A DNA stretch of 64,000 nt from a virus: the UHGV virus genome UHGV-0038496, one strand, 5' to 3'. Of the stretch, positions 8,353-20,267 are shown piece by piece. The notes below the pieces were generated by a model. The model was not told the origin of the DNA. It searched no databases and was given only the letters and a program-made list of their open reading frames with translations. The stretch's first letter is position 1; every line of letters begins with the position of its first letter. Position numbers and translations under genes: made by a program.

Positions 8353-8706
8353 TTATATGTCAAGTTCTTCTACAACACGAAGAATCAATTCAAACGCAGT
8401 GCCGTCTGCGTCAACGCAATCCAAACCTTCGATAATGAAAGTTACAATGTCTTCCACACCCGTGTCTTCCCCGAAGTTAACAGTCAGGAATTGACCTACT
8501 TCGAAAACAGTATCAGAGAACACAAAAGCATGGTAAACATCATAATCTTCATTGTCTGCCACCAGCAGCAAATCGTGATTCTTATGACGTTGTGTGAAGT
8601 CGTGCACTGTTACATCTTGTGGTTCAGATGTATCAACATCAGCGACGTAATTAACAATATTAGCCAGCAGACTCATTATCGGCCTCCTTTTTAACCTTAG
8701 CTTCAA
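8353..8706 (-). CDS. hypothetical protein
   Basis: 117-aa acidic ORF; overlaps the helicase gene end. Confidence 0.45.
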   Translation of the reverse strand: MKLRLKRRPIMSLLANIVNYVADVDTSEPQDVTVHDFTQRHKNHDLLLVADNEDYDVYHAFVFSDTVFEVGQFLTVNFGEDTGVEDIVTFIIEGLDCVDADGTAFELILRVVEELDI

Positions 8707-10048
8707 GATCTTTTCTTACTTTTTCATCCAACCCAGGGAATGTATCGGCGTAAAACTGTATCACCCTTGGGTCTACGATAATATCACTTTCTCTAACAGG
8801 ACGCAAGAGGGTAATGCTCTGAATTTTCTTAGCACGGCTAAGAGCAACATAAGTCATTCCTGCCGCGAATGCACCTCTCTTACCTAAATCAAGGTTGTAA
8901 GCCTCCAGAGTAAGCCCCTGGCATTTATGGATTGTATAGGCATACCCAGATTTCAAAGGTAACTGTTCGAATGACCCTGTGGTTATTCTTTCAATCACTC
9001 TTTTCTTTTTACGGGTAGCCCAGTCAAATTTGATAGACGGTTTGTATTCGTAACTCTCCCATAACTTAGTAGGTACAGTAACAAGTGTACCATCATCCAG
9101 CTCAATGTCAACCTTATCTGTGTGAAATTCTAAAATTGTGCCACGGGATCCATTCACATAATGTGGAACTTTGTGTTTAGGATCAAGGTCGTTAGCAACA
9201 ATCATAACTTTCATGCCTACTTTCAGATACATAGTATCTTCCACTGGCAAGTGATTAGCAGGAAATCTGCCTTTCAAGACCCCCTTGTACATCTTTTCTT
9301 TGCCATTTACACGATCATAGAACTCCCTGTTTATCTCTTCCACCCTTTTGTTGGTTGAGCACAAAATAATGGCATCAGAAGGTTGACCACCATGATAGCA
9401 ACGGGAGTTTAGTTCCTTCACCACATCTTTGGTTCTGCGACCTTCTCGGACACAGTTTAACATTGTGGCAAACCTAATTGACTCCTGCCTGAATTGCTCC
9501 ACAAGGGCAACACATTTCAGGTTGAGGTCTTTCCAGGATTGTGTGTAGAAGCAAAGGTCAGTGTCCCAATATTTGTAGTAATCCTCTCTTTCTTGCATAG
9601 AGATAACAGGCTCTGCCTGGTAGAAATCCCCAAACATGATCACCTGTAAACCTCCGAAAGGTTCATTAGATTTACGAAGGTGTTGGAGTTTCTTATCCAT
9701 CTCCACAAACTTATCCGCACGAACCATAGACACTTCATCAATGACTAAGGTTCGTAGTGCTTTACTTTTGAGAGGTTTGGCTGTTTTAGAACGAATCTCT
9801 GTGAAATCTTCTGGGACAGTCACACCTGCTGACAGGTCAAAAGCCCTGTGTGCGGTAACACCGCCAGCGTTAAGTGCAGCTACCCCTGTTGGGGCAACAA
9901 CCATACAAGATTCGCCGAGTAAAGATTGTATGTCTTGCAAAAGATGAGTCTTACCAGTGCCACCTGGCCCACTGATATAGACATTTTCACCACATAACAC
10001 AGCGGCGAGAGCGGCATCCGTGCCAATCTCATAGGTTTGTTCTTCCAC
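8660..10048 (-). CDS. ATP-dependent DNA helicase, Dda/RecD/PIF1-like (SF1B)
   Basis: Walker A GPGGTGKTHLL, APTGVAA, and C-terminal AYTIHKCQGLT...ALSRA motifs typical of RecD/Dda helicases. Confidence 0.8.
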   Translation of the reverse strand: MEEQTYEIGTDAALAAVLCGENVYISGPGGTGKTHLLQDIQSLLGESCMVVAPTGVAALNAGGVTAHRAFDLSAGVTVPEDFTEIRSKTAKPLKSKALRTLVIDEVSMVRADKFVEMDKKLQHLRKSNEPFGGLQVIMFGDFYQAEPVISMQEREDYYKYWDTDLCFYTQSWKDLNLKCVALVEQFRQESIRFATMLNCVREGRRTKDVVKELNSRCYHGGQPSDAIILCSTNKRVEEINREFYDRVNGKEKMYKGVLKGRFPANHLPVEDTMYLKVGMKVMIVANDLDPKHKVPHYVNGSRGTILEFHTDKVDIELDDGTLVTVPTKLWESYEYKPSIKFDWATRKKKRVIERITTGSFEQLPLKSGYAYTIHKCQGLTLEAYNLDLGKRGAFAAGMTYVALSRAKKIQSITLLRPVRESDIIVDPRVIQFYADTFPGLDEKVRKDLEAKVKKEADNESAG

Positions 10049-10057
10049 TCTTCCTCC

Positions 10058-11341
10058 TTAGAAGAAGATCTCTTCTATTACGTTGCCATCACGGTCAACT
10101 ACATACTCATTCGGCATATCTTCCGTGCGTTTAACAGGAGCCGTGAGTATTTCGAAGCGGCAGCAACGGCATTTAGCAAAGTCGTAGTCATACGGCACAC
10201 TAACCACATCTGCTGGGTCAACAGCCACTTTAGTTAACACACCGTATCCTTTGGCATACTCAGCGCTTGCACAGTGCAGGCCGTGAGAGCAAGCCACCTT
10301 TGGGTTATCCTCTACAAAGTTACGAGGCATTGAGATAAAGCAGCCTTCGTATTGTGGGACTTTACCAGAATGGTAGTCTACACAGCTTCCGTCAGCCTTC
10401 TGAGTTACACCACGGAAACATTCTATACGACCATCAGGTAGAATGTCAATATCATTTGCCTGCATAAAGTTGTAGAGCATGTCTACAGACTTAGCAGACG
10501 GGTTACGAAGCAGACGGACCAGGAACTTGATGTAGCGTTCATCCAGAGTGCCTTCTGCCGCATCCTTTTCAATCCGTTTGGCGATAGTGGAAGTCAGGTG
10601 CACACCATAGTAGAAGAGTTCACCATCACGCATTACGAGGTGATTTTCCAGGTACACCACTTCAATACTTTCCTCTTCCTCTTTCTCCGCGTCCTTAATG
10701 AGCTGAATTGCACCATCGAAGTCGTTAGCACCAACTCTTGCAAACACTTCTTTGTAGAGTTCTTCGTTGTCCTCATCAGCTGTTACAGTGTAAGTCTCTT
10801 CACGAGTGATAATCTGGATCATGCTGCCGAAGATAACCACGACAGGTTCACCATCTGGCACTTTTGGCACCAGGTCATCAGCATTGTAAATCGCTTCATC
10901 ACTGGATGGTTCAACCTCTAAAGGTGAGGCATCACCGTAGTAAGTCGCTGCGTGTTCTGCTGGGGTGTAAACAAGGTTTTTAGGACTTGCATTTTCCCAG
11001 TGCAATACCCCTACTACATTGCCAGGGTATTTTACCACCCAACGCGGAACAGTCGCATAAGGGCCACGGTCGATGAGTGTGGAACCTTCCATGCAGTTTT
11101 CTTTGAACTTACGAGCCTCTCCACGAGAAGCAAACTCTGCATAGTAGTATTCCACTTCCAAAAATTCATTATCAATGTCGCAATTTTTCGGGGAATGTAC
11201 GTCTATCCACCATTCGCCATCGAGAAGATACGGTTTACCCACAGGAAAGCCACGGCTTTCATATTTTGCTTTTGCTACACGAGCATCGTTACGAGTTTTG
11301 TAAGTACGCACGTATACAGCTACGGTTGAACAGTCTGACAT
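10058..11341 (-). CDS. rIIB-like protein (tentative)
   Basis: 427-aa ORF immediately downstream of, and start/stop-overlapping with, the rIIA-like gene; assignment is by position only. Confidence 0.35.
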   Translation of the reverse strand: MSDCSTVAVYVRTYKTRNDARVAKAKYESRGFPVGKPYLLDGEWWIDVHSPKNCDIDNEFLEVEYYYAEFASRGEARKFKENCMEGSTLIDRGPYATVPRWVVKYPGNVVGVLHWENASPKNLVYTPAEHAATYYGDASPLEVEPSSDEAIYNADDLVPKVPDGEPVVVIFGSMIQIITREETYTVTADEDNEELYKEVFARVGANDFDGAIQLIKDAEKEEEESIEVVYLENHLVMRDGELFYYGVHLTSTIAKRIEKDAAEGTLDERYIKFLVRLLRNPSAKSVDMLYNFMQANDIDILPDGRIECFRGVTQKADGSCVDYHSGKVPQYEGCFISMPRNFVEDNPKVACSHGLHCASAEYAKGYGVLTKVAVDPADVVSVPYDYDFAKCRCCRFEILTAPVKRTEDMPNEYVVDRDGNVIEEIFF

Positions 11342-13353
11342 TATTCAGTCTCCTTCTTAGCTTTCATTAATTCAATATATTCAACAACTTCTGGTTTATC
11401 CCAGTAATCCCCCTGGATGCGTTTCAGCAACGGGTAGCGTTTGTATACACCATCCATGTAGCGACGAGCACATTTCACATGAAGGTTCACAAGATGATCT
11501 GCTCTGTCAGCCAGATCCCTATACTTCCACGAGTAGCATCCCATCCACATACGGACCTTATACTTGTTTTCTTTTACTTCTGGGTCAATGCACATTTTCA
11601 CACCGAGTTTTCCCAGTTGCATTTTATATTTTGTGTAACCTGTTGTGTTTGCAGCTTTCATCAAAAGCCAGTTCCAGGCATCCTGTTCCAGAACAGGTTT
11701 TGCATCAACCTCTGTGATAATTCTACAATCTTCTGTCACCCATGTCAAGCGACTTTCAGCAACCATGTAAACATCTTCATCCTGTGGGATACCAAAGGCT
11801 TCACGGAAGACCACCGGATCCTGTTGGTAGATGTTATTGTTTTCACCCAACCAACTGCGGCCTCTCTGGATATCACCATCATACGGGATGCAGTATTTTA
11901 TATCTTTAAAATCCTGCTTACTGATGCGTTCGCGGCAGAACCAACCGTGTTCATCCATCTTTTTGACATAATAGCCCGGTTGATACGTGCTCGCCTGGCA
12001 TTGGTCTTTTGGTGGCTTAGGTAGCTCAGACAGTAGATACAGCACGTCACTGTAGAACGGATCGTTCACATATTTAGCCAGCTCCTCTGACAGGTACGGG
12101 TCTTCCACATAGTAGACGTTGCGGCCTGTCTCATTAGCCAGATAGTTACATTTAATCCGGTTGAACTTACCGTTTGCGTCATTCAGTACCAGCTTACGGC
12201 CTGCTGAAAACTCTGAAGGGCCGTACATATCTCGTTTCAGAGAGTTAGCACCAATCCGAGTACCACCTACGAACACAGGCAACTCATTGATGACTGGGAC
12301 AGTACGACCTTGCATAATGGCTTTCCATTTAGCAGTCATGAACTTCCAGCCCACCAGACGCGAGAAGAAACCACCAGACTCTTTAATGATACGACGGGCT
12401 TCAACCCCAGAAGTGGCCTTATTCAGCAGCACTTCAATCTCTTCACCACGTTTACTGATACCTTCATCCACAAAGGCTTTCAGCTGTTCGAGGAACCCAC
12501 CATCATCATCACCCTCAATCGTCCATTCACGGCCAAGGTTGATATCGCAATCGCCAATCGGAATCTCTACCACCAGGCGCGGATAATCTACCAGAGATTC
12601 AAGATACTCTGAACGATAAGGTTGGTGACCCATCACAACACGGCTTTCCATAGAGCAAGTATTGCCGTGGTAGATGTACAGAGTCCATCCACCTTTTTTG
12701 TATGTGTAGTCAACGTTGCTTCTAAATTGCTCCAGCATCCGTGTGGTGATCGGATCCGACACCTCGAACGGAAACTTAGCATAGTTCAGGCATGAAGCTA
12801 TCGCATGGCGATACGCAGACACATCCCTTTTGCTCACAGGGAACCGGATTGTGATGCCGTTATGCTGCGTAGAAGGCTCGCTACGCGTCTTAGTGACTTT
12901 CGGTATACCTTTGTCCATAAAGACAAGATATTCGCTTCTTGTGCCGTTATAGACGCTTATAACGTTAAAGGCTTCTACCTTGCTCAGAGGTGCTTTTGAG
13001 CCAATGCCTTTGGCACCTACCAGCTCATTACTCTGGCGCTTAGTGGAGTCGCCCAACGTCATAAAAATTGTGCGTACAGTCTCTTCAGACATGCCGAGGC
13101 CTTCATCCTGCACAGAGAAGTAAGGCTCAAGGTCGGTTGGTGTATGGATCTTGATAGGCACATCTTTACGACCTGCTTCAACATGAGCATCCACAGCATT
13201 GAAGATAGGCTCACGACAGGAAGCGAGTAAAGGATCTTTGTAAATACCTTTGATAATCAGGCCAAACGTCTCCGCATTCAGCGCGATTGTCCCTGTGGTA
13301 ACTTCACTCTTACCGAGAATGTTTGCTTCTTTATGGTCACTTTTAATAATCAT
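11341..13353 (-). CDS. rIIA-like protein with N-terminal GHKL-type ATPase fold
   Basis: N-terminal MIIKSD..., then GHKL boxes NAVDAH, DEGLGM, GAKGIGSKA; 670 aa, similar in size to T4 rIIA (about 725 aa, from memory). Confidence 0.55.
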   Translation of the reverse strand: MIIKSDHKEANILGKSEVTTGTIALNAETFGLIIKGIYKDPLLASCREPIFNAVDAHVEAGRKDVPIKIHTPTDLEPYFSVQDEGLGMSEETVRTIFMTLGDSTKRQSNELVGAKGIGSKAPLSKVEAFNVISVYNGTRSEYLVFMDKGIPKVTKTRSEPSTQHNGITIRFPVSKRDVSAYRHAIASCLNYAKFPFEVSDPITTRMLEQFRSNVDYTYKKGGWTLYIYHGNTCSMESRVVMGHQPYRSEYLESLVDYPRLVVEIPIGDCDINLGREWTIEGDDDGGFLEQLKAFVDEGISKRGEEIEVLLNKATSGVEARRIIKESGGFFSRLVGWKFMTAKWKAIMQGRTVPVINELPVFVGGTRIGANSLKRDMYGPSEFSAGRKLVLNDANGKFNRIKCNYLANETGRNVYYVEDPYLSEELAKYVNDPFYSDVLYLLSELPKPPKDQCQASTYQPGYYVKKMDEHGWFCRERISKQDFKDIKYCIPYDGDIQRGRSWLGENNNIYQQDPVVFREAFGIPQDEDVYMVAESRLTWVTEDCRIITEVDAKPVLEQDAWNWLLMKAANTTGYTKYKMQLGKLGVKMCIDPEVKENKYKVRMWMGCYSWKYRDLADRADHLVNLHVKCARRYMDGVYKRYPLLKRIQGDYWDKPEVVEYIELMKAKKETE

Positions 13354-13785: not shown

Positions 13786-14979
13786 TTAAGCCTTAGCTAA
13801 CAAGTCACGGAACTCTTCCCCAAACTGTTTGACGATAGTCATCAGGTTAGGGTATGCTTTAATCAGTTTAGCCATGATTTTCTCACGACCATGCTCTTTG
13901 TTCACCAGAATAGCATTGCCAAGTGCATTCGGGCTAATCATCGCTTTGAACACAGAGAATACGAAGTCTCTGTTGTCATTCTGGAAGTTGCTCCATAAAT
14001 ATTCCAGGAAGTTCGCAGCACTGCTAACCACTTCGTCATCATCGACTTCAATGTTAGCCATCATGTTGCGTAAGCCAATACAACCTTCTGAACCCAGAAT
14101 CCAGATGAGGTCTGGAGATTTCTGGCCTTTGAACTCTTTGACTGCCCCAGCAAAGATATCCCCAATCTCTGGCAGATTGCGTTTCTTCGTGTGGTAAGTC
14201 ATAATCTCCAGCATCATCGTGTGACCAATCGTCCCCTGTAACAGGACACGGGCTTCAGCTTCTGAAACCAGACGGCGATCAAGGTCCCACAGAATATCCG
14301 AAGCAGTTACCCATGAACGAGGTGTGGCGAATGCAGGACAGTTGCAGTCTGCCATTGCTTCGTAGTTCTCAATAGATGACGGCTGGCGTTTCAAATAACC
14401 GATCACAGAAGAATGCACACCTTGTGGGAATGCATAGTCTTCCAGGAAGACGTTGGCATCTGGGATAACTTCTACAATAGTTAAACGGTTTGCCAGAGGT
14501 GCTTCCAATACAGACAGCACTGCACCATCACCAGAACGGTTACCTGCACCTACAAACACCGCACCTTTCGGGAATTTGTAGCAACCGCATTTGTGGTCCA
14601 ACATGATCTGCATGGCTACTTTCTGGAGAAAATTATCTGCATGGTTCATTTCATCCAGCAGAATAATACCTTCCCAGTCTGGATCAGTAGGCCAGAAGCT
14701 CGGTGTGGCAAACACAGTGCGAGTTGTGCCATCTTCCTCTGTTACCGGAACAGGCAGGCCAGACAGGTCTGTTGGGTCTTTATCTGACAAACGAACATCG
14801 ATCAAGTTATCTTCCCGTTCTCCAAATAGTTTATCGGCAGTTTGCTTGATGACCTGGCTCTTACCAACACCAGGAGAACCCAGTATAAATAAAGATTTGC
14901 CGTGACGCTGGGCAAACTTGATCATAGCAGGCAACTCACGAACTGTAATCTGCCCACTTTCGAAAATGTTTCTTGACAT
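13786..14979 (-). CDS. AAA+ ATPase (MoxR/AAA_5-like)
   Basis: Walker A GSPGVGKSQ, Walker B ILLDEMNHA; 397 aa. Confidence 0.75.
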   Translation of the reverse strand: MSRNIFESGQITVRELPAMIKFAQRHGKSLFILGSPGVGKSQVIKQTADKLFGEREDNLIDVRLSDKDPTDLSGLPVPVTEEDGTTRTVFATPSFWPTDPDWEGIILLDEMNHADNFLQKVAMQIMLDHKCGCYKFPKGAVFVGAGNRSGDGAVLSVLEAPLANRLTIVEVIPDANVFLEDYAFPQGVHSSVIGYLKRQPSSIENYEAMADCNCPAFATPRSWVTASDILWDLDRRLVSEAEARVLLQGTIGHTMMLEIMTYHTKKRNLPEIGDIFAGAVKEFKGQKSPDLIWILGSEGCIGLRNMMANIEVDDDEVVSSAANFLEYLWSNFQNDNRDFVFSVFKAMISPNALGNAILVNKEHGREKIMAKLIKAYPNLMTIVKQFGEEFRDLLAKA

Positions 14980-15230
14980 TAGTAAAGCTCCTCTCTTGCT
15001 TCGTAAGTATGTTCAAAGTTTTCAAGTTCTGTCATTACATCGAAGACAGGGATGCCATACGCTATGTCGAAATTATAAGCCATTCTACCAGCTACAACTT
15101 CTTGTGGGTCAATTGCCCGATTAGCGTAGAAGTATGCAGGGGTGCACCTACGTGATCCACCCCTCATGCCGCTATGATAATACTTTTCGTAGTCCCTGTC
15201 AAAGTCTAATTCTCTATATTGGTTTGACAT
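14979..15230 (-). CDS. hypothetical protein
   Basis: 83-aa ORF; ATGA-type overlap with the ATPase gene. Confidence 0.4.
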   Translation of the reverse strand: MSNQYRELDFDRDYEKYYHSGMRGGSRRCTPAYFYANRAIDPQEVVAGRMAYNFDIAYGIPVFDVMTELENFEHTYEAREELY

Positions 15231-15245
15231 AGATCAACCTCCGTG

Positions 15246-15620
15246 TTAGAAAGTAGTTTTCACCCACAGATTGTGCCTGTCTGCCCAGTCATAAAGCTCA
15301 GACATGGCATAATCAAAATCTTCCATAGGTGTGATCAAAATATCAATTTCCTCATTGATATAAGCGTGGACCTCTTTACTAAACTCTTCCGGTGGGAGAA
15401 TTGCCAGGAAGTGCTCAACCACATCGTCAAGATCCCAGTCATATTCTGGGCAATCTGCGTTTAATTGCCGTGGGTAGAGTTCAGCTATTTTTCGGGCTAT
15501 CCGTTTGGCGAACTTGTGGACATTATTGCCAGTCCACTCCTGGATTGTACCATCTTCAAGTGGGAGTCCTTCCCACCAGTCAGACAGATCCAGCGTCTTA
15601 TTCCACCGTGCCATAGTCAT
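15246..15620 (-). CDS. hypothetical protein
   Basis: 124-aa ORF in an overlapping small-gene array. Confidence 0.45.
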   Translation of the reverse strand: MTMARWNKTLDLSDWWEGLPLEDGTIQEWTGNNVHKFAKRIARKIAELYPRQLNADCPEYDWDLDDVVEHFLAILPPEEFSKEVHAYINEEIDILITPMEDFDYAMSELYDWADRHNLWVKTTF

Positions 15621-15883
15621 TCTCCCACATCTACCGTTGTAGAGATGACCAGATTTTTAGGGCCAATATCCAGCTCTGCCAGAGGTTTAGAATCACCACC
15701 TGCATACAAAGCCTGGCACACTGTAGGCATCATATCTTCCGGGATATACTCTAACAGGTTAAGTGAGATGTAACCTTTATCTTCTTTCACGAAGTGGATG
15801 ATCATCAGATCGCCAGCTTCAAAGAGGCTACCATCAACTTTAACGTCTTCTGCATTCAGATAAACATTTACGATTGTTTTCAT
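15617..15883 (-). CDS. hypothetical protein
   Basis: 88-aa ORF with 4-nt overlaps on both sides. Confidence 0.45.
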   Translation of the reverse strand: MKTIVNVYLNAEDVKVDGSLFEAGDLMIIHFVKEDKGYISLNLLEYIPEDMMPTVCQALYAGGDSKPLAELDIGPKNLVISTTVDVGE

Positions 15884-16158
15884 TCTTCGATCTCCACTTC
15901 AAATTCTGCTACACATTCAGCTGGGTCGATAAAATCTTCTGCTTCGCAGATAGGTTGACCATACCCATACTTCAATAAATCTTCTACACCTTTTTTCTGT
16001 AGGTGAGCAATCTTCTTATCCAGATCTTCTGGCAAACACCCCATCAGGAAAGCTAAATCCTTCTCTGGGATACATACAGCCAGACACTCTCCAGCTGTCA
16101 TAAGAATTATTTCATCCAGAACCACAGGTTCCATATTACGCAGGACGACTATTTTCAT
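15880..16158 (-). CDS. hypothetical protein
   Basis: 92-aa ORF with 4-nt overlaps. Confidence 0.45.
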   Translation of the reverse strand: MKIVVLRNMEPVVLDEIILMTAGECLAVCIPEKDLAFLMGCLPEDLDKKIAHLQKKGVEDLLKYGYGQPICEAEDFIDPAECVAEFEVEIEE

Positions 16159-16433
16159 TCTCCAACCCCCAGAGCATATGCAGGAGCTTCTTCAAATGCC
16201 AGAACCAGACGATGATTGTGGCGTGGGTCCAGGAAGATTTTAGTTACCCGTAAGCACACAGTGTAACCGTCCATTGCTGCCACAACGTAGTCACCAGGAT
16301 ACGGCAGTTTATCACCAGGGTTAACGAATGCATGGCCCATAGCCAGTTCGTCATCTGTTGTGTGGTGCATTGCAAACCATACAGCATCTGCCTGTGCATC
16401 TTCACCTACGTGGAAAATCTGAGGTTTTTTCAT
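16155..16433 (-). CDS. hypothetical protein
   Basis: 92-aa ORF with overlaps. Confidence 0.45.
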   Translation of the reverse strand: MKKPQIFHVGEDAQADAVWFAMHHTTDDELAMGHAFVNPGDKLPYPGDYVVAAMDGYTVCLRVTKIFLDPRHNHRLVLAFEEAPAYALGVGE

Positions 16434-17326
16434 TAGAAGTCTCCTTCGTATTTAATCTTAGCTTCTTCATCCCACTTCAACATAGGACGAAGTAATTCTA
16501 ACTCATTACCCAGCAGGTTGTCAACCCATAATTGATCTTTTATTCCCATCGCTTCCATAACTTCAAGAGATTCAGGTGAGAATTTACCATCCTCCCCTTT
16601 GAATGACTCCAAAGTATCCGAGCTAACACGGGCATATTCCATACGGCTATCACGCTTCCGGTACTGGAACATCAGGAATTCCCCTGTTGTGTGATACTTG
16701 TTGATCAGCATAACAGGTTCCCCACCCAGAGCTGTGTATTCCCGTGACTTAATCTGCAACGGGGCGAAGTCACTTACACTCTGGTTACCAGTCATCCTGC
16801 TAGTTATTTTCCCATCGTAGCAGAAAACGTATGGCAAGTCAAGCAGGTCAATAGAAATATCTGAAGAGTAACATACACTCCTGCCGTTCAAACTATAATA
16901 AACATACACCATAAAAGGCTGCATGTCAAATGCTTTTGCAAGCATTTTGAAGAAACCTCTCTCTCCACCGATAATGCCGTTCATAAAATAAGGATGCTCT
17001 GCTATAGAGGCAAAGCCTTGTTGGAAACGGAACATGACACACCCAGCACGCTGCCACGATACAGCCTTATTGATCTCCATGCTGAAGCTACCCATAAAAT
17101 TATGGCCTGGCATATCTTCTTTAGTGAACATCCAGTGGAAATCATCAAACCCTGCACTATTGATCGTAGTGTTGATTGAGTTTGCTATTAAGTTGTAGAA
17201 CGGGTGGCAAGCTGTGAACAGTCTGCGACGATACAGGATACTCTCATACAAAGAAGAAAGTATTGTTCCCACATCTGTTGGGGCTTGACTCATAGGGTCA
17301 AATGGTGTAATATGATGCTCAAACAT
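16433..17326 (-). CDS. hypothetical protein (about 297 aa)
   Basis: Track ORF trimmed to ATG at 17324-17326 (MFEHHITPFD...) with RBS GAGAGGAA 7 nt upstream; the longer version would overlap the divergent promoter region. Confidence 0.5.
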   Translation of the reverse strand: MFEHHITPFDPMSQAPTDVGTILSSLYESILYRRRLFTACHPFYNLIANSINTTINSAGFDDFHWMFTKEDMPGHNFMGSFSMEINKAVSWQRAGCVMFRFQQGFASIAEHPYFMNGIIGGERGFFKMLAKAFDMQPFMVYVYYSLNGRSVCYSSDISIDLLDLPYVFCYDGKITSRMTGNQSVSDFAPLQIKSREYTALGGEPVMLINKYHTTGEFLMFQYRKRDSRMEYARVSSDTLESFKGEDGKFSPESLEVMEAMGIKDQLWVDNLLGNELELLRPMLKWDEEAKIKYEGDF

Positions 17327-17400
17327 GGAAAGGTTCCTCTCTTGTTCTGTTATTGGCGAAGAATAGATCAAGATGAACCAAAAGTCAACAACATTTTTAG

Positions 17401-17429
17401 TTGACAAGGGTAAAATTTCATGTTAATGT
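17401..17429 (+). promoter_or_regulatory. sigma70-like promoter (TTGACA, 17-nt spacer, TAATGT)
   Basis: -35 TTGACA at 17401-17406, -10 TAATGT at 17424-17429, about 35 nt upstream of the ATG at 17464. Confidence 0.45.
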
Positions 17430-17463
17430 TCGCCCTAAATACACACAAGCAAGGACATTTGCT

Positions 17464-18498
17464 ATGGCTAAAACAAACATTCAGTATCTGGAGGGCTGCT
17501 ATCAACCGTGGGAGTTGGAGAAGCTGAATAAAAAGTATAAACGTAAACAGGGTAATGCTAAGAAAAGGGGCATCATGTTTACGTTAACGTGGGAGGAATG
17601 GCTCTTTTTTGGGAAAAAATTATTAGGTGATGGGGTTTGTGACTACTCACTTATCCCATTCGACATGCATACAGATGAAAACGGGATAGGTAACCCGTTC
17701 TATCCTTCTCTCGAACGCATAGATTGTGAAGGTGCATACGCATTACACAATTGTTGTGTAGTGGGCACTCGTTGTAACGAGTTAAAAGACTCACTGGTTG
17801 ATCGTGCCAATGCGGTTCTCGTTAAGGATCGCCATGATCGTAAGATTGTCAAAAACATGATTCTCCATATGTCTGATGAACGAATGGAGGCCCTGAAAGA
17901 AGAATACTCTTTCGAAAACTTCATGCGCCAGTATGGCTCTGAAGAAGACAAAGCTGAACTCGGCCTGTTGGGTGGTGAAGAACTTTTGCAACAAATTGAA
18001 GCTAAGGAGGAAGAACCTATGACACCTGCACAGGAATTACGTGAGTTCATGGACAAACGTGCTGAAAAACATGTCAGGGACATTGCGAAAGAGCCTGTGG
18101 CTGAAGAAACGGCTGAAGTTGAAGAAGTACAAGCCGAAGTTGTTGAGGACCGTACAGACGCTCCTGAAGAGCCTAAACCGCTACCTCAGGCATTACCACC
18201 AGATGTGGCTGTTGCTCAGGCTTATGCTTTCTACTGCCAGGTCTTCTACGACATAGGTATGAAAGTGGATCTGACATTCGGACAGTTCAAACAAGTGTAC
18301 CAGAAAAAATGTTGTGCACTGACTGGTGAACGCCTGGGTGACGGACTTAAATCTATCCTGGTGGCTGATCGTGATAAAGGTTTTGTCAAAGGTAACTTCA
18401 TGGTAGTTACACCTGTGATGGAAAAAGCGATGACTGACCTCATGAAAACGACTAACATGACGATGGCAGAGCTTGCAAACATCTTCAAAAAGGTGTAA
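17464..18498 (+). CDS. hypothetical protein with two Cys-containing domains separated by an acidic linker
   Basis: Start moved to the ATG at 17464 (MAKTNIQYLEG...), which has an AAGGA RBS and sits downstream of the promoter; N- and C-terminal segments share a F.LT...KK..G.C pattern around an EEPVAEETAEVEEVQAEVVED linker. Confidence 0.5.
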   Translation: MAKTNIQYLEGCYQPWELEKLNKKYKRKQGNAKKRGIMFTLTWEEWLFFGKKLLGDGVCDYSLIPFDMHTDENGIGNPFYPSLERIDCEGAYALHNCCVVGTRCNELKDSLVDRANAVLVKDRHDRKIVKNMILHMSDERMEALKEEYSFENFMRQYGSEEDKAELGLLGGEELLQQIEAKEEEPMTPAQELREFMDKRAEKHVRDIAKEPVAEETAEVEEVQAEVVEDRTDAPEEPKPLPQALPPDVAVAQAYAFYCQVFYDIGMKVDLTFGQFKQVYQKKCCALTGERLGDGLKSILVADRDKGFVKGNFMVVTPVMEKAMTDLMKTTNMTMAELANIFKKV

Positions 18499-18517
18499 GA
18501 TAGTAGAAAATAACAAC

Positions 18518-18537
18518 GAGGGGGCTTTTGCCCCCTT
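18518..18537 (+). terminator. weak intrinsic terminator or attenuator
   Basis: GGGGGC-TTTT-GCCCCC hairpin followed by TTTGG; located between the 17464..18498 gene and the RBS GGAGGA of the next gene. Confidence 0.3.
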
Positions 18538-18549
18538 TGGAGGATCGTA

Positions 18550-20004
18550 GTGGACGCAAGAAGTTCAGAACTGATTTTAGCACAGAAACCAGAAGCTCTA
18601 CGTATGCTCCAGGGTGCTCGCATGTGGCTCATGGAAAGACTGAGCTTCTACGGTGTGCTCCTGTCAGGCTTACAATTTGTTGAGAACCACACATGGTGTG
18701 ACACTATTGCCACAGACCATAAGCGGATTTACTACAATCCAGAGTTCATCGTGGGTGTTTGTCAGGAACGCCGTGCTATCATTCTGCCTAAGTGCGATGA
18801 TAAAATGAAAGAACAGCTGGATGCTTTCTATGCACCTAAAACGCTTAAAGAGGTTGCTTTTCTCCTGTGTCATGAGATAGGTCACATCATTGCTGATCAC
18901 ATCAGCCGTGGTAAAGCCTTCTCTGATCACAACCTGTTTAACCAGGCTGCTGACCACGTTATTAATACGGGGCTGATGGAAGATTTAGCTGAACCGCCAT
19001 GTGCAATGTTCCCACACGGCATTCGCACACAGCTGAAAAAAGGCCAGCCGTTTGCATTCCTTGAGTATTGCTATTGTGATAAGAAATACCACGGGTGGAT
19101 AACTGAAAAAGTTTATGCAGACCTGGAAAAACAACAACAGCAGCAACAAGGTAAAGGACAAAGTGCCAGTGGTGGTGGTCTACGAGCCACAGATACTCAC
19201 ATGGGTGACGGACAAGGCCAGTCTGACAACCTCAGTGAAGCTATGGGCTACGAAAAAGGCAACCAGCCACCAATGACTCAGGCAGAGAGAGATGCAGCAA
19301 TGCAGGACTCTGGGGACATGATGGAAGCTGCTATGCAGGCGGCAGGTGGTGAAGGTCCGGCACAGGTGCGTGAGTGGATCAAAAATCGCAATAAGCCTAT
19401 TATCAACTATCTGGATGTGATTCGCCAGCGTATGTTGTCACACCGGAAAGCTGATATGACTTATCGCCGTCCGGCACGTCGCTCTGGTGCTTTAACTCAC
19501 ACATTACGTAACAAAGGGGCTATCAACAATCGCCAGTCTGTTATTCTCCCAGGTCGCAACCAGGAGAAAACGATTGACATAGTGGTTGCATTCGACGTAT
19601 CAGGCTCTATCTCTCAACGAACTCTGAAACGTATCACTTCAGAAATCGGTGGGTTGTGCAGCCTGTATAAAGAGTTCAAAGTTACAATGTTCTGTTGGTC
19701 AACAGAAGTTGGTGATGTTCAGGTATACACTCACCAGAATATTGCACAGATGCCTGACTACCAGATTAAGTCTACGTTCGGTACTCGCGCAGGCTGTGTG
19801 TTTGAATATCTGGATAAACATCTGTCTGATGTTCAGGATGTGATTATCTTTACTGACCTGTATCTTGAATCAGATTTTGAAAAAGAGGTTGACAGGAACA
19901 ACTGGGATAAGTATAATACGCTCTGGATCAGGACAGAAGGTGGTAACAAGAACTATACGCCATCTTTTGGCAGAACTATTGATTTGATTGAAAACGCTAA
20001 ATAG
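18550..20004 (+). CDS. putative zinc metallopeptidase-like plus von Willebrand factor A domain protein
   Basis: GTG start with RBS GGAGGA; HExxH motif LCHEIGHIIADH in the N-terminal half; vWA MIDAS-like VAFDVSGSIS in the C-terminal half; Q/G-rich low-complexity linker. Confidence 0.65.
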   Translation: MDARSSELILAQKPEALRMLQGARMWLMERLSFYGVLLSGLQFVENHTWCDTIATDHKRIYYNPEFIVGVCQERRAIILPKCDDKMKEQLDAFYAPKTLKEVAFLLCHEIGHIIADHISRGKAFSDHNLFNQAADHVINTGLMEDLAEPPCAMFPHGIRTQLKKGQPFAFLEYCYCDKKYHGWITEKVYADLEKQQQQQQGKGQSASGGGLRATDTHMGDGQGQSDNLSEAMGYEKGNQPPMTQAERDAAMQDSGDMMEAAMQAAGGEGPAQVREWIKNRNKPIINYLDVIRQRMLSHRKADMTYRRPARRSGALTHTLRNKGAINNRQSVILPGRNQEKTIDIVVAFDVSGSISQRTLKRITSEIGGLCSLYKEFKVTMFCWSTEVGDVQVYTHQNIAQMPDYQIKSTFGTRAGCVFEYLDKHLSDVQDVIIFTDLYLESDFEKEVDRNNWDKYNTLWIRTEGGNKNYTPSFGRTIDLIENAK

Positions 20005-20015
20005 GAGACACAGTT

Positions 20016-20267
20016 ATGGCAACATCTGTATCTTTAAGAGAGCTTGAACCTGTGGTCAAACCTCTCAGAAATTTTAAACCGGGCACGGTTGTAGAAATCC
20101 TGGTGGCAGCTGAAGCACGCAATGTGTTAATCATGGAGGATAACTCTTATGACGGTGGCATCTACACTGTAGACCTGGAAGACTTCTCTTTACAAATTAT
20201 GGACGGTGATTTATCTGCAACAGAAGTTAATGCAGAAATCGTCCTTTGCGGATACGCTCGTCATTAA
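20016..20267 (+). CDS. hypothetical protein
   Basis: 83-aa ORF following the previous gene by 11 nt. Confidence 0.45.
   Translation: MATSVSLRELEPVVKPLRNFKPGTVVEILVAAEARNVLIMEDNSYDGGIYTVDLEDFSLQIMDGDLSATEVNAEIVLCGYARH

Follow-up and report, generated by a model that had tools for sequence, protein, structure and literature searches.

Pairs that combine a MoxR-like AAA+ ATPase with a partner that has a von Willebrand factor A (vWA) domain are on record from several kinds of viruses. In N4-like phages (Schitoviridae), gp24 and gp25 are 2 of the 14 core genes, and in N4 itself they are middle transcripts (PMC4193335; PMC2784036). A MoxR-vWA pair with an N-terminal metallopeptidase was described in group 2.2 jumbo phages by Iyer et al. 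(2021; PMC7824862), and AAA/vWA pairs of unknown function have been recorded in replication or accessory modules of archaeal viruses (PMC7911831). Bacteria have "ternary" conflict systems built on a MoxR-vWA couple, in which the vWA protein can carry a fused effector domain (Kaur et al. 2020; PMC7159879). Here, we analyzed a pair of this kind in the virus genome UHGV-0038496, a stretch of 64,000 nucleotides (nt) that is referred to as the window. An initial annotation, made from the letters alone, had pointed to a MoxR-type ATPase and a protein combining an HExxH motif with a vWA domain, encoded on opposite strands about 3.5 kb apart. The pair is nothing categorically new; it is a widespread phage gene pair already annotated or described in rV5, N4, and jumbo phages.

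Relationship of the pair to N4 gp24/gp25

Both open reading frames (ORFs) are present as annotated. The ATPase gene, at 13786..14979 on the minus strand, starts with ATG and encodes 397 amino acids (aa). The gene for the partner, a zincin-like peptidase with a vWA domain plus a MIDAS (metal ion-dependent adhesion site), lies at 18550..20004 on the plus strand, starts with GTG behind a ribosome-binding site (GGAGGA, 18539-18544), and encodes 484 aa. The genes point away from each other with 3,570 nt between their start codons, in line with the spacing first reported. Ratios of nonsynonymous to synonymous substitution rates (dN/dS) against the closest metagenomic relatives were 0.03 to 0.05 for both genes at a dS of ~0.3, the figure for the vWA gene coming from one comparison. 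Such strong purifying selection indicates that both are real genes and not chance ORFs.

Profile comparisons with hhalign showed that the window ATPase is homologous to N4 gp24 (E value, 2.7e-39; probability, 100%) and the vWA protein to N4 gp25 (E value, 4.5e-49; probability, 100%). N4 gp25 comes close to being a prototype of the Pfam families DUF2201_N and DUF2201 (3e-87 and 1e-46), and its architecture is that of the window protein. We regard it as highly probable that the two window genes constitute a coupled MoxR-like/vWA-zincin module homologous to gp24/gp25.

The window is that of an rV5-like myophage (i.e., a relative of Vequintavirus), in which the equivalents of the two genes are rV5 ORF4 (ATPase) and ORF12 (vWA protein). 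Its arrangement differs from that of N4. In N4, gp24 and gp25 are adjacent, co-directional middle genes read by the phage RNA polymerase II, whereas the window genes are 3.5 kb apart, divergent, and positioned behind sigma-70-type promoters. At the protein level, the window versions are set apart from those of N4 by rV5-clade insertions and a Q/G linker in the vWA protein and by a longer helical C terminus in the ATPase.

Assignment of the ATPase to the MoxR/AAA_5 clade

Coordinates derived from the ORF start place the Walker A codons (G33-S-P-G-V-G-K39-S40) at 14860..14883 and the Walker B codons (D108-E109) at 14653..14658, both on the minus strand. Among 40 homologs, G36, K39, and the two Walker B residues are invariant, G33, G38, and S40 are conserved in at least 90%, and N146, R147, N163-R164, and P219-R220 are likewise invariant or conserved in at least 90%. 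The catalytic motif set is thus complete, with Walker A, Walker B, sensor 1, and three arginine positions invariant or nearly so. Any designation of one of these arginines as the finger and another as sensor 2 is provisional.

A Pfam search of the pair, as first suggested, placed the vWA protein directly (see below) and the ATPase only by way of its homologs. The window ATPase falls below the gathering thresholds for AAA_3 and AAA_5, and its scores for bpMoxR (16.4 bits) and AAA_14 (16.9 bits) are both under the cutoff of 27. However, homologs found at E values of 1e-38 to 1e-43 carry AAA_3, AAA_5, and AAA domains, and the homolog P0117 passes for both AAA_3 (33.9 against 27) and AAA_5 (28.3 against 22). 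Membership in the MoxR group is therefore transitive, and the window protein represents a divergent subfamily.

A single-sequence search of the PDB returned only generic P-loop matches for the ATPase and none for the vWA protein, so profiles and fold comparison were needed. The 40-homolog profile matched midasin AAA modules in the PDB at 2e-18, and the closest solved folds of the ATPase model include CbbQ, a MoxR protein, and NorQ. Strand pairs are present in the model at the sites expected for the helix-2 and pre-sensor-1 hairpins of the MoxR/AAA_5 clade, and an extra helical region of ~150 residues forms the C terminus. By its homologs, profile searches, and fold, the ATPase is a divergent member of the MoxR/AAA_5/midasin-dynein clade. 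The motif set, the domains of its homologs, the midasin profile matches, and the CbbQ, MoxR, and NorQ folds thus uphold the original MoxR-type assignment. The AAA modules of dynein and midasin share the AAA_5 clade with MoxR, and matches to them do not speak against a MoxR reading for that reason. The opposite result envisaged at the outset, an unrelated (e.g., dynein-like) family with no co-occurring vWA partner, was not what was found: the protein sits in the AAA_5 clade and a vWA partner co-occurs with it. One homolog (P0050), in Salmonella phage SSBI34, is labeled "ribosomal protein uS19."

The peptidase-vWA partner

Pfam detected two families in the vWA protein, in the order DUF2201_N (110.7 bits; cutoff, 23.2) and DUF2201 (42.4 bits; cutoff, 26.4). 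The former is described by Pfam as a "putative metallopeptidase" (a zincin with an HExxH motif) and the latter as "VWA-like." Both were present in all but one of 72 homologs obtained by a word-indexed search. The codons of the HExxH motif and a further conserved histidine (H108-E109-I-G-H112-I-I-A-D-H117) occupy 18871..18900 on the plus strand. Across 46 homologs, with identities down to 22 to 30%, H112 is invariant, H108, E109, and H117 are conserved in at least 90%, and D135 is also conserved. The MIDAS set is complete (D349-x-S351-G352-S353, G411-T412, and T435-D436), its members being invariant or conserved in at least 90%, and the residues encoded on the plus strand at 19594..19608 (D349-V-S351-G352-S353), 19783-19785 (T412), and 19855-19857 (D436) are invariant in the same 46 homologs. 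The above-cutoff domains and the conservation of both motifs bear out the partner that was first described, in which an HExxH motif is combined with a MIDAS-containing vWA domain.

The N-terminal domain is a putative zincin peptidase, judged by its intact HExxH motif. No solved structure matched it, and weak profile matches around the HExxH helix were to the minigluzincin MJ1213 and to M48/BepA (E values, 0.03 to 0.5). The vWA-protein profile matched the MIDAS segment of the integrin alpha-X I domain (E value, 4e-4), and NorD, BatB, and MIDAS domains were among the top structural matches. In proteins of the rV5 clade, the peptidase domain has two clade-specific insertions (approximately residues 66-98 and 146-176), and residues 203-225 form a Q/G-rich, disordered linker.

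The fusion of a peptidase to a vWA domain had been considered the less usual part of the pair; instead, it is the family norm (DUF2201_N plus DUF2201, ~15,000 representatives). An exhaustive profile search of 50%-identity cluster representatives yielded 14,984 at E values of ≤1e-30 and 26,271 at ≤1e-10, most of them full-length proteins of 380 to 490 aa. Annotations of this family vary. The PHROG that matches the vWA protein at 1.6e-112 (phrog_1314) is labeled "HNH endonuclease," and many GenBank records name the gene "HNH endonuclease," "anti-sigma factor," or "DNA repair ATPase." Pfam found DUF2201_N and DUF2201 only in the protein, and no HNH domain; the "HNH endonuclease" label looks like a propagated misannotation.

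The fold matches bear on one alternative explanation of the pair, in which it would be a metal-insertion or enzyme-activation factor for a phage or host enzyme of DNA or nucleotide metabolism, comparable to NorQD, CbbQO, or chelatases, and the HExxH motif would be a metal-handling site. The characterized MoxR/vWA pairs mostly insert metals or reactivate enzymes (PMC9976466; PMC13036017), NorD, BatB, and MIDAS domains are top fold matches, and the pair recurs beside ThyA, DHFR, dCTP deaminase, and radical-SAM genes. However, Pfam and NCBIfam gave no match to CobS/CobT, BchD/I, NorD, or CbbO-specific domains, a conserved HExxH motif with its glutamate is a hydrolytic zincin signature (DUF2201_N), and no single metalloenzyme neighbor is common to all lineages. 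The cellular systems also differ from the phage pair: the partners in NorQ-NorD, CbbQ-CbbO, RavA-ViaA, and midasin have no zincin domain, the vWA domain of the phage protein is minimal (~140 aa), identity to cellular MoxR/vWA pairs is only 10 to 18%, and no cognate metalloenzyme is identifiable for the window pair. We consider a metal-insertion role quite improbable.

Linkage of the two genes in viruses and bacteria

Co-occurrence, proposed as a check at the outset, was examined in IMG/VR loci, and 75 of 80 had the ATPase gene within 10 kb of the vWA gene. Four of the remaining five end <700 nt upstream of the vWA gene. In the fifth (L072; IMGVR_UViG_3300002092_001378), 9.9 kb of sequence flank the vWA gene on each side and no ATPase is detectable, a situation found in no other viral locus; its ATPase gene may have been lost or relocated beyond 10 kb, or a host ATPase may be used. 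In all non-rV5-like loci with an ATPase (66 of the 80), the ATPase gene precedes the vWA gene in the same orientation, at a distance that is mostly <1.3 kb and often <150 nt. The two genes are adjacent on environmental phage contigs of 118 to 270 kb, in N4 and the N4-like phages PYO2, EC1-UPM, and ZQ2, in jumbo phage GAP32, and in Aeromonas phage phiA009. The ATPase gene also directly precedes the vWA gene in 57 of 67 bacterial loci (sulfur-oxidizing Beta- and Gammaproteobacteria), a sample that is biased toward relatives of one Sulfuricella protein and is no measure of overall bacterial distribution.

Only the rV5-like clade is split. All nine rV5-like IMG/VR loci retain the pair on opposite strands, 3.5 to 5.1 kb apart. 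Same-strand adjacency elsewhere points to a two-gene operon as the ancestral state; this layout is therefore a derived rearrangement, in which the rV5-like clade would have separated and inverted the pair. Both halves of the split pair are retained intact in this clade.

The split raises the question of whether the two proteins of this phage no longer cooperate, each having a different or a host partner. The distance and divergent orientation in every rV5-like locus examined would fit such uncoupling, as would locus L072, whose vWA gene lacks an ATPase gene in the 9.9 kb to its left and right. Nevertheless, both genes are kept in rV5 as well as in 9/9 rV5-like IMG/VR loci, both are under strong constraint (see above) with all catalytic and MIDAS residues intact, both flank one shared divergent control region, and the ORFs examined from 8.6 to 23.5 kb of the window included no further vWA or MoxR candidate. 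Uncoupling is, in our judgment, very improbable.

Searches of 50,697 phage records (INPHARED) with tblastn gave 809 matches for the window ATPase, 445 for the window vWA protein, and 680 for N4 gp25. The excess of records with the ATPase only consists largely of N4-like phages, whose vWA gene has diverged too far to be found with the window query. Carriers of the pair include podo-, myo-, and jumbo phages, amounting to ~800 of the 50,697 sequenced phage genomes (~1.6%).

Neighbors of the pair were clustered in 80 viral and 80 bacterial loci for a third component. Recurrent small ORFs without a known family were obtained, none of them common to phages and bacteria in these 80 + 80 loci. The most frequent viral neighbor after the ATPase was a 229-aa protein (phrog_15894; Lys-rich coiled-coil tail; no Pfam match). 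In 58 viral loci (among L006-L085; e.g., 8273-8962 in L067), its gene follows the vWA gene in the same orientation, at a distance of ~1 kb downstream. Bacteria with a chromosomal AAA_5 plus DUF2201 unit include Sulfuricella, Thiodiazotropha, Chromatiales, and Thiocapsa (L091-L170; e.g., 5464-9218 in L103). Often, an Smr-domain gene and an uncharacterized 186-aa ORF lie ahead of the unit and a gene for a BepA-like M48 peptidase lies behind it, and in one Sulfuricella metagenome-assembled genome a 124-aa ORF lies between the ATPase and vWA genes.

A defense-system identity was considered for the window pair and rejected: NCBIfam gave no match, PADLOC gave nothing significant, and no third component is nearby. 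The window pair resembles the ternary conflict systems of Kaur et al. in coupling MoxR to a vWA protein with a fused domain. It is unlike them in that the window has no VMAP, iSTAND, FtsH, or beta-propeller neighbor and in that its bpMoxR score is subthreshold (16.4 against 27).

Kinship with rV5-like phages

Megablast of the 6.2-kb region carrying the pair found no match in INPHARED, so the window is related to known phages at the protein level only and represents a new lineage or a genus-level relative. The best protein matches were to rV5-like Escherichia coli myophages (Vequintavirus), with which the ATPase shares 73% and the vWA protein 62% identity. Near-identical copies (95 to 98%) occur on IMG/VR contigs of 118 to 141 kb.

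The rV5 genome (DQ832317) has a syntenic order of rIIA ... ORF3, ORF4, ORF5-10, a divergent promoter, the Srd-like ORF11, and ORF12. The divergent ATPase/vWA layout, the flanking rIIA, the Srd-like ORF11, and promoter P11 are thus shared with the window, which is without the SleB-like gene that rV5 has between rIIA and the ATPase gene. ORF4 was annotated as "MoxR ATPase" in the 2006 annotation of rV5.

Two irregularities were noted in public records. In DQ832317 (L001, 3891-5349, minus strand), the vWA gene is frameshifted at approximately residue 413, next to the MIDAS threonine, and is annotated as ORF12 plus ORF13. All other relatives, rV5_ev146 included, have one intact vWA ORF, and the frameshift probably arose by an error in sequencing or by mutation in the laboratory. 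Sixteen unannotated MG0656xx records ("Campylobacter phage C12, C2, A142 ..."; Campylobacter jejuni) match both window proteins, at 73% and 62%, the identity levels that the E. coli rV5-like phages also show. These genomes are ~137 to 141 kb, as are those of E. coli rV5-like phages, and their Campylobacter host labels look doubtful.

Proposed mechanism, timing, and target

We propose that the two genes specify one two-component machine, the rV5-lineage version of N4 gp24/gp25. By analogy with NorQ-NorD, CbbQO, and RavA-ViaA, the ATPase would assemble into a hexameric ring on which the vWA domain docks, and the MIDAS would grip an acidic residue of a specific target protein. In NorQD, a finger of the VWA domain inserts into the AAA pore, with remodeling of a linker (PMC13036017). 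ATP hydrolysis in the phage machine would remodel the adaptor or the target, and the fused metallopeptidase would then cut the target. The output would be an adaptor-gated, ATP-dependent, site-specific protease and not a bulk unfoldase; given the conserved hydrolytic zincin motif in the adaptor, ATP-gated site-specific cleavage is the simplest output to propose. The module would be made before the late genes, in the window from sigma-70-type promoters on either side of the divergent control region. Its target would be a protein or complex of the early or middle phase, involved in host takeover, replication, or nucleotide metabolism, and not the virion. Taken as a whole (module, mechanism, timing, and target), this explanation is one that we favor slightly; the cleavage mechanism and the pre-late, non-virion target, taken jointly, are tentative and fall somewhat short of being probable.

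The timing and the target draw on gene neighborhoods. In three lineages (N4, environmental large phages, and the window), the pair lies among early or middle genes for replication, nucleotide metabolism, and host takeover. The N4 order (L086, 3939-16277) is gp24, gp25, dCTP deaminase ... ThyA ... rIIA, rIIB ... helicase, DNA polymerase, and environmental phage neighbors include FEN, ThyA/Thy1, DHFR, and a QueE-like protein. On the minus strand of the window, the ATPase gene is followed by one ORF and then by rIIA (11341-13353), rIIB (10058-11341), and a Dda-like helicase gene (8660-10048), all three assigned by PHROGs. The order ATPase ... rIIA-rIIB ... helicase is thus common to the podophage N4 and the window, which suggests an old replication/early block with the MoxR/vWA pair in it. 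Among environmental loci, rIIA and rIIB were not recurrent neighbors of the pair.

The published hypothesis for such pairs is a different one. Iyer et al. (2021; PMC7824862, section 3.4.5) proposed for jumbo phages a virion-assembly chaperone with a maturation protease, i.e., a pair that assembles a head or tail structure and whose peptidase processes structural proteins. Their module has the same architecture as the window pair, and Atu_ph07 and Rak2-like jumbo phages were among the tblastn matches obtained with the window protein. It belongs to jumbo phages and was linked to virion assembly, whereas the window pair is in an early/middle-type region of a genome of ~137 to 140 kb, judged from its close relatives. 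Assembly gains support from the MoxR/vWA pair p618/p892 of the Acidianus two-tailed virus, which is cited for a role in tail development (PMC7824862 and PMC7911831), from the general role of MoxR proteins as assembly or maturation chaperones, from the mid-phase "second structural module" of N4-like roseophages close to the gp24/gp25 homologs (PMC4193335), and from an N4 virion protein of 32 kDa that is encoded a few genes upstream of gp24/gp25. However, the pair stands among early or middle genes outside the late structural block in three unrelated lineages, N4 gp24/gp25 are middle transcripts (PMC4193335), and the carrier phages differ in morphology (podo-, myo-, and jumbo phages). Moreover, the pair forms a stable chromosomal operon in sulfur-oxidizing bacteria, where clustering detected no phage genes in its neighborhood; this bacterial occurrence is hard to reconcile with a virion-specific role. 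These early/middle neighborhoods and the bacterial pair without phage genes lead us tentatively to favor a pre-late, non-virion target over assembly, which we rate as an unlikely alternative.

Several points weigh against the proposed protease and its timing. The order of genes in phages is a weak guide to function or timing, and N4-like roseophages encode some virion proteins near their gp24/gp25 homologs (PMC4193335), as assembly would have it. The characterized MoxR/vWA pairs cited above mostly work on metals and enzyme maturation or reactivation, not by proteolysis, and a literature search found no experimental function for any phage member. To these are added the subthreshold bpMoxR and AAA_14 scores of the ATPase and the number of promoter-like sites in the region (18, compared with 13.7 ± 3.7 in shuffled sequences), which is not above chance.

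A bolder generalization holds that gp24/gp25-type modules are widespread ATP-gated, MIDAS-targeted endoproteases that act before the late phase on one conserved host or phage protein, such as a defense protein or a host factor that has to be cleaved for takeover to proceed. We think this distinctly unlikely. If it were true, the ancestral linkage to rIIA/rIIB and the replication helicase that is seen in N4 and rV5-like phages would stem from participation in one pathway, and a function would be provided for 2 of the 14 universal N4-like genes, present in ~1.6% of sequenced phage genomes. The remaining interest of the module lies in its breadth and its core status in N4-like phages. The window illustrates the derived split arrangement and, together with the neighborhood data, offers a testable argument for action before virion assembly. 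Genetically tractable E. coli phages carry the module, namely, N4 and the rV5-like EdH4, the latter used with CRISPRi-ART and Cas13 editing.

Divergent control region and neighboring genes

The strand switch between the two genes is a divergent intergenic region of 137 nt (17327..17463), with leftward genes extending up to approximately 17326 and the rightward unit beginning at the ATG at 17464. The sign of the GC skew flips there. The region contains the -35 elements TTGACA (17401-17406, plus strand) and TTGACT (17388-17383, minus strand), which together form a near-palindrome, GTCAAC-N11-GTTGAC(A), at 17384-17406 (i.e., back-to-back -35 boxes of both divergent units) that could also be an operator for some regulator. 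The same back-to-back element is kept in rV5 around the annotated promoter P11. Because the scan for promoters and terminators was not enriched over shuffled sequences, the promoter claim rests on this conservation. The strand switch, the change in GC skew, and the -35 elements shared with rV5 P11 agree with the divergent promoter region of the initial annotation, and its early-region placement is plausible in view of the sigma-70-type promoters.

The rightward unit that contains the vWA gene opens with an Srd-like (anti-sigma-like) gene (17464..18498, plus strand), syntenic with rV5 ORF11. It matches phrog_3118 (5.9e-87) and phrog_1400, "Srd anti-sigma factor" (1.8e-14). Its likely start is the ATG at 17464, which has AAGGA 8 nt upstream, and not the TTG at 17401.

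Upstream of the ATPase gene is an 83-aa ORF (14979..15230, minus strand; phrog_13164, 1.1e-22) equivalent to rV5 ORF5. Its stop overlaps the ATPase start (TAATG), which suggests translational coupling. Inside this ORF, ~200 nt upstream of the ATPase start, lies a sigma-70-like site on the minus strand (15174..15202; TTGACA-17-TATCAT, 11 of 12 matches), which is kept in rV5 as TTGACA-17-TATTAT.

A perfect GC hairpin (GGGGGC-TTTT-GCCCCC, 18520..18535) separates the Srd-like gene from the vWA gene. On the plus strand it is followed by TTT only and then by the vWA ribosome-binding site, whereas on the minus strand it has a T-rich tail; its role may be attenuation or else termination, either of convergent read-through or on the minus strand. 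The 3' end of the vWA gene contains, at 19889-19917, a sigma-70 promoter sequence that fits the consensus perfectly (TTGACA-17-TATAAT, 12 of 12 matches); the following ORF, at 20016, lies ~100 nt downstream of it.

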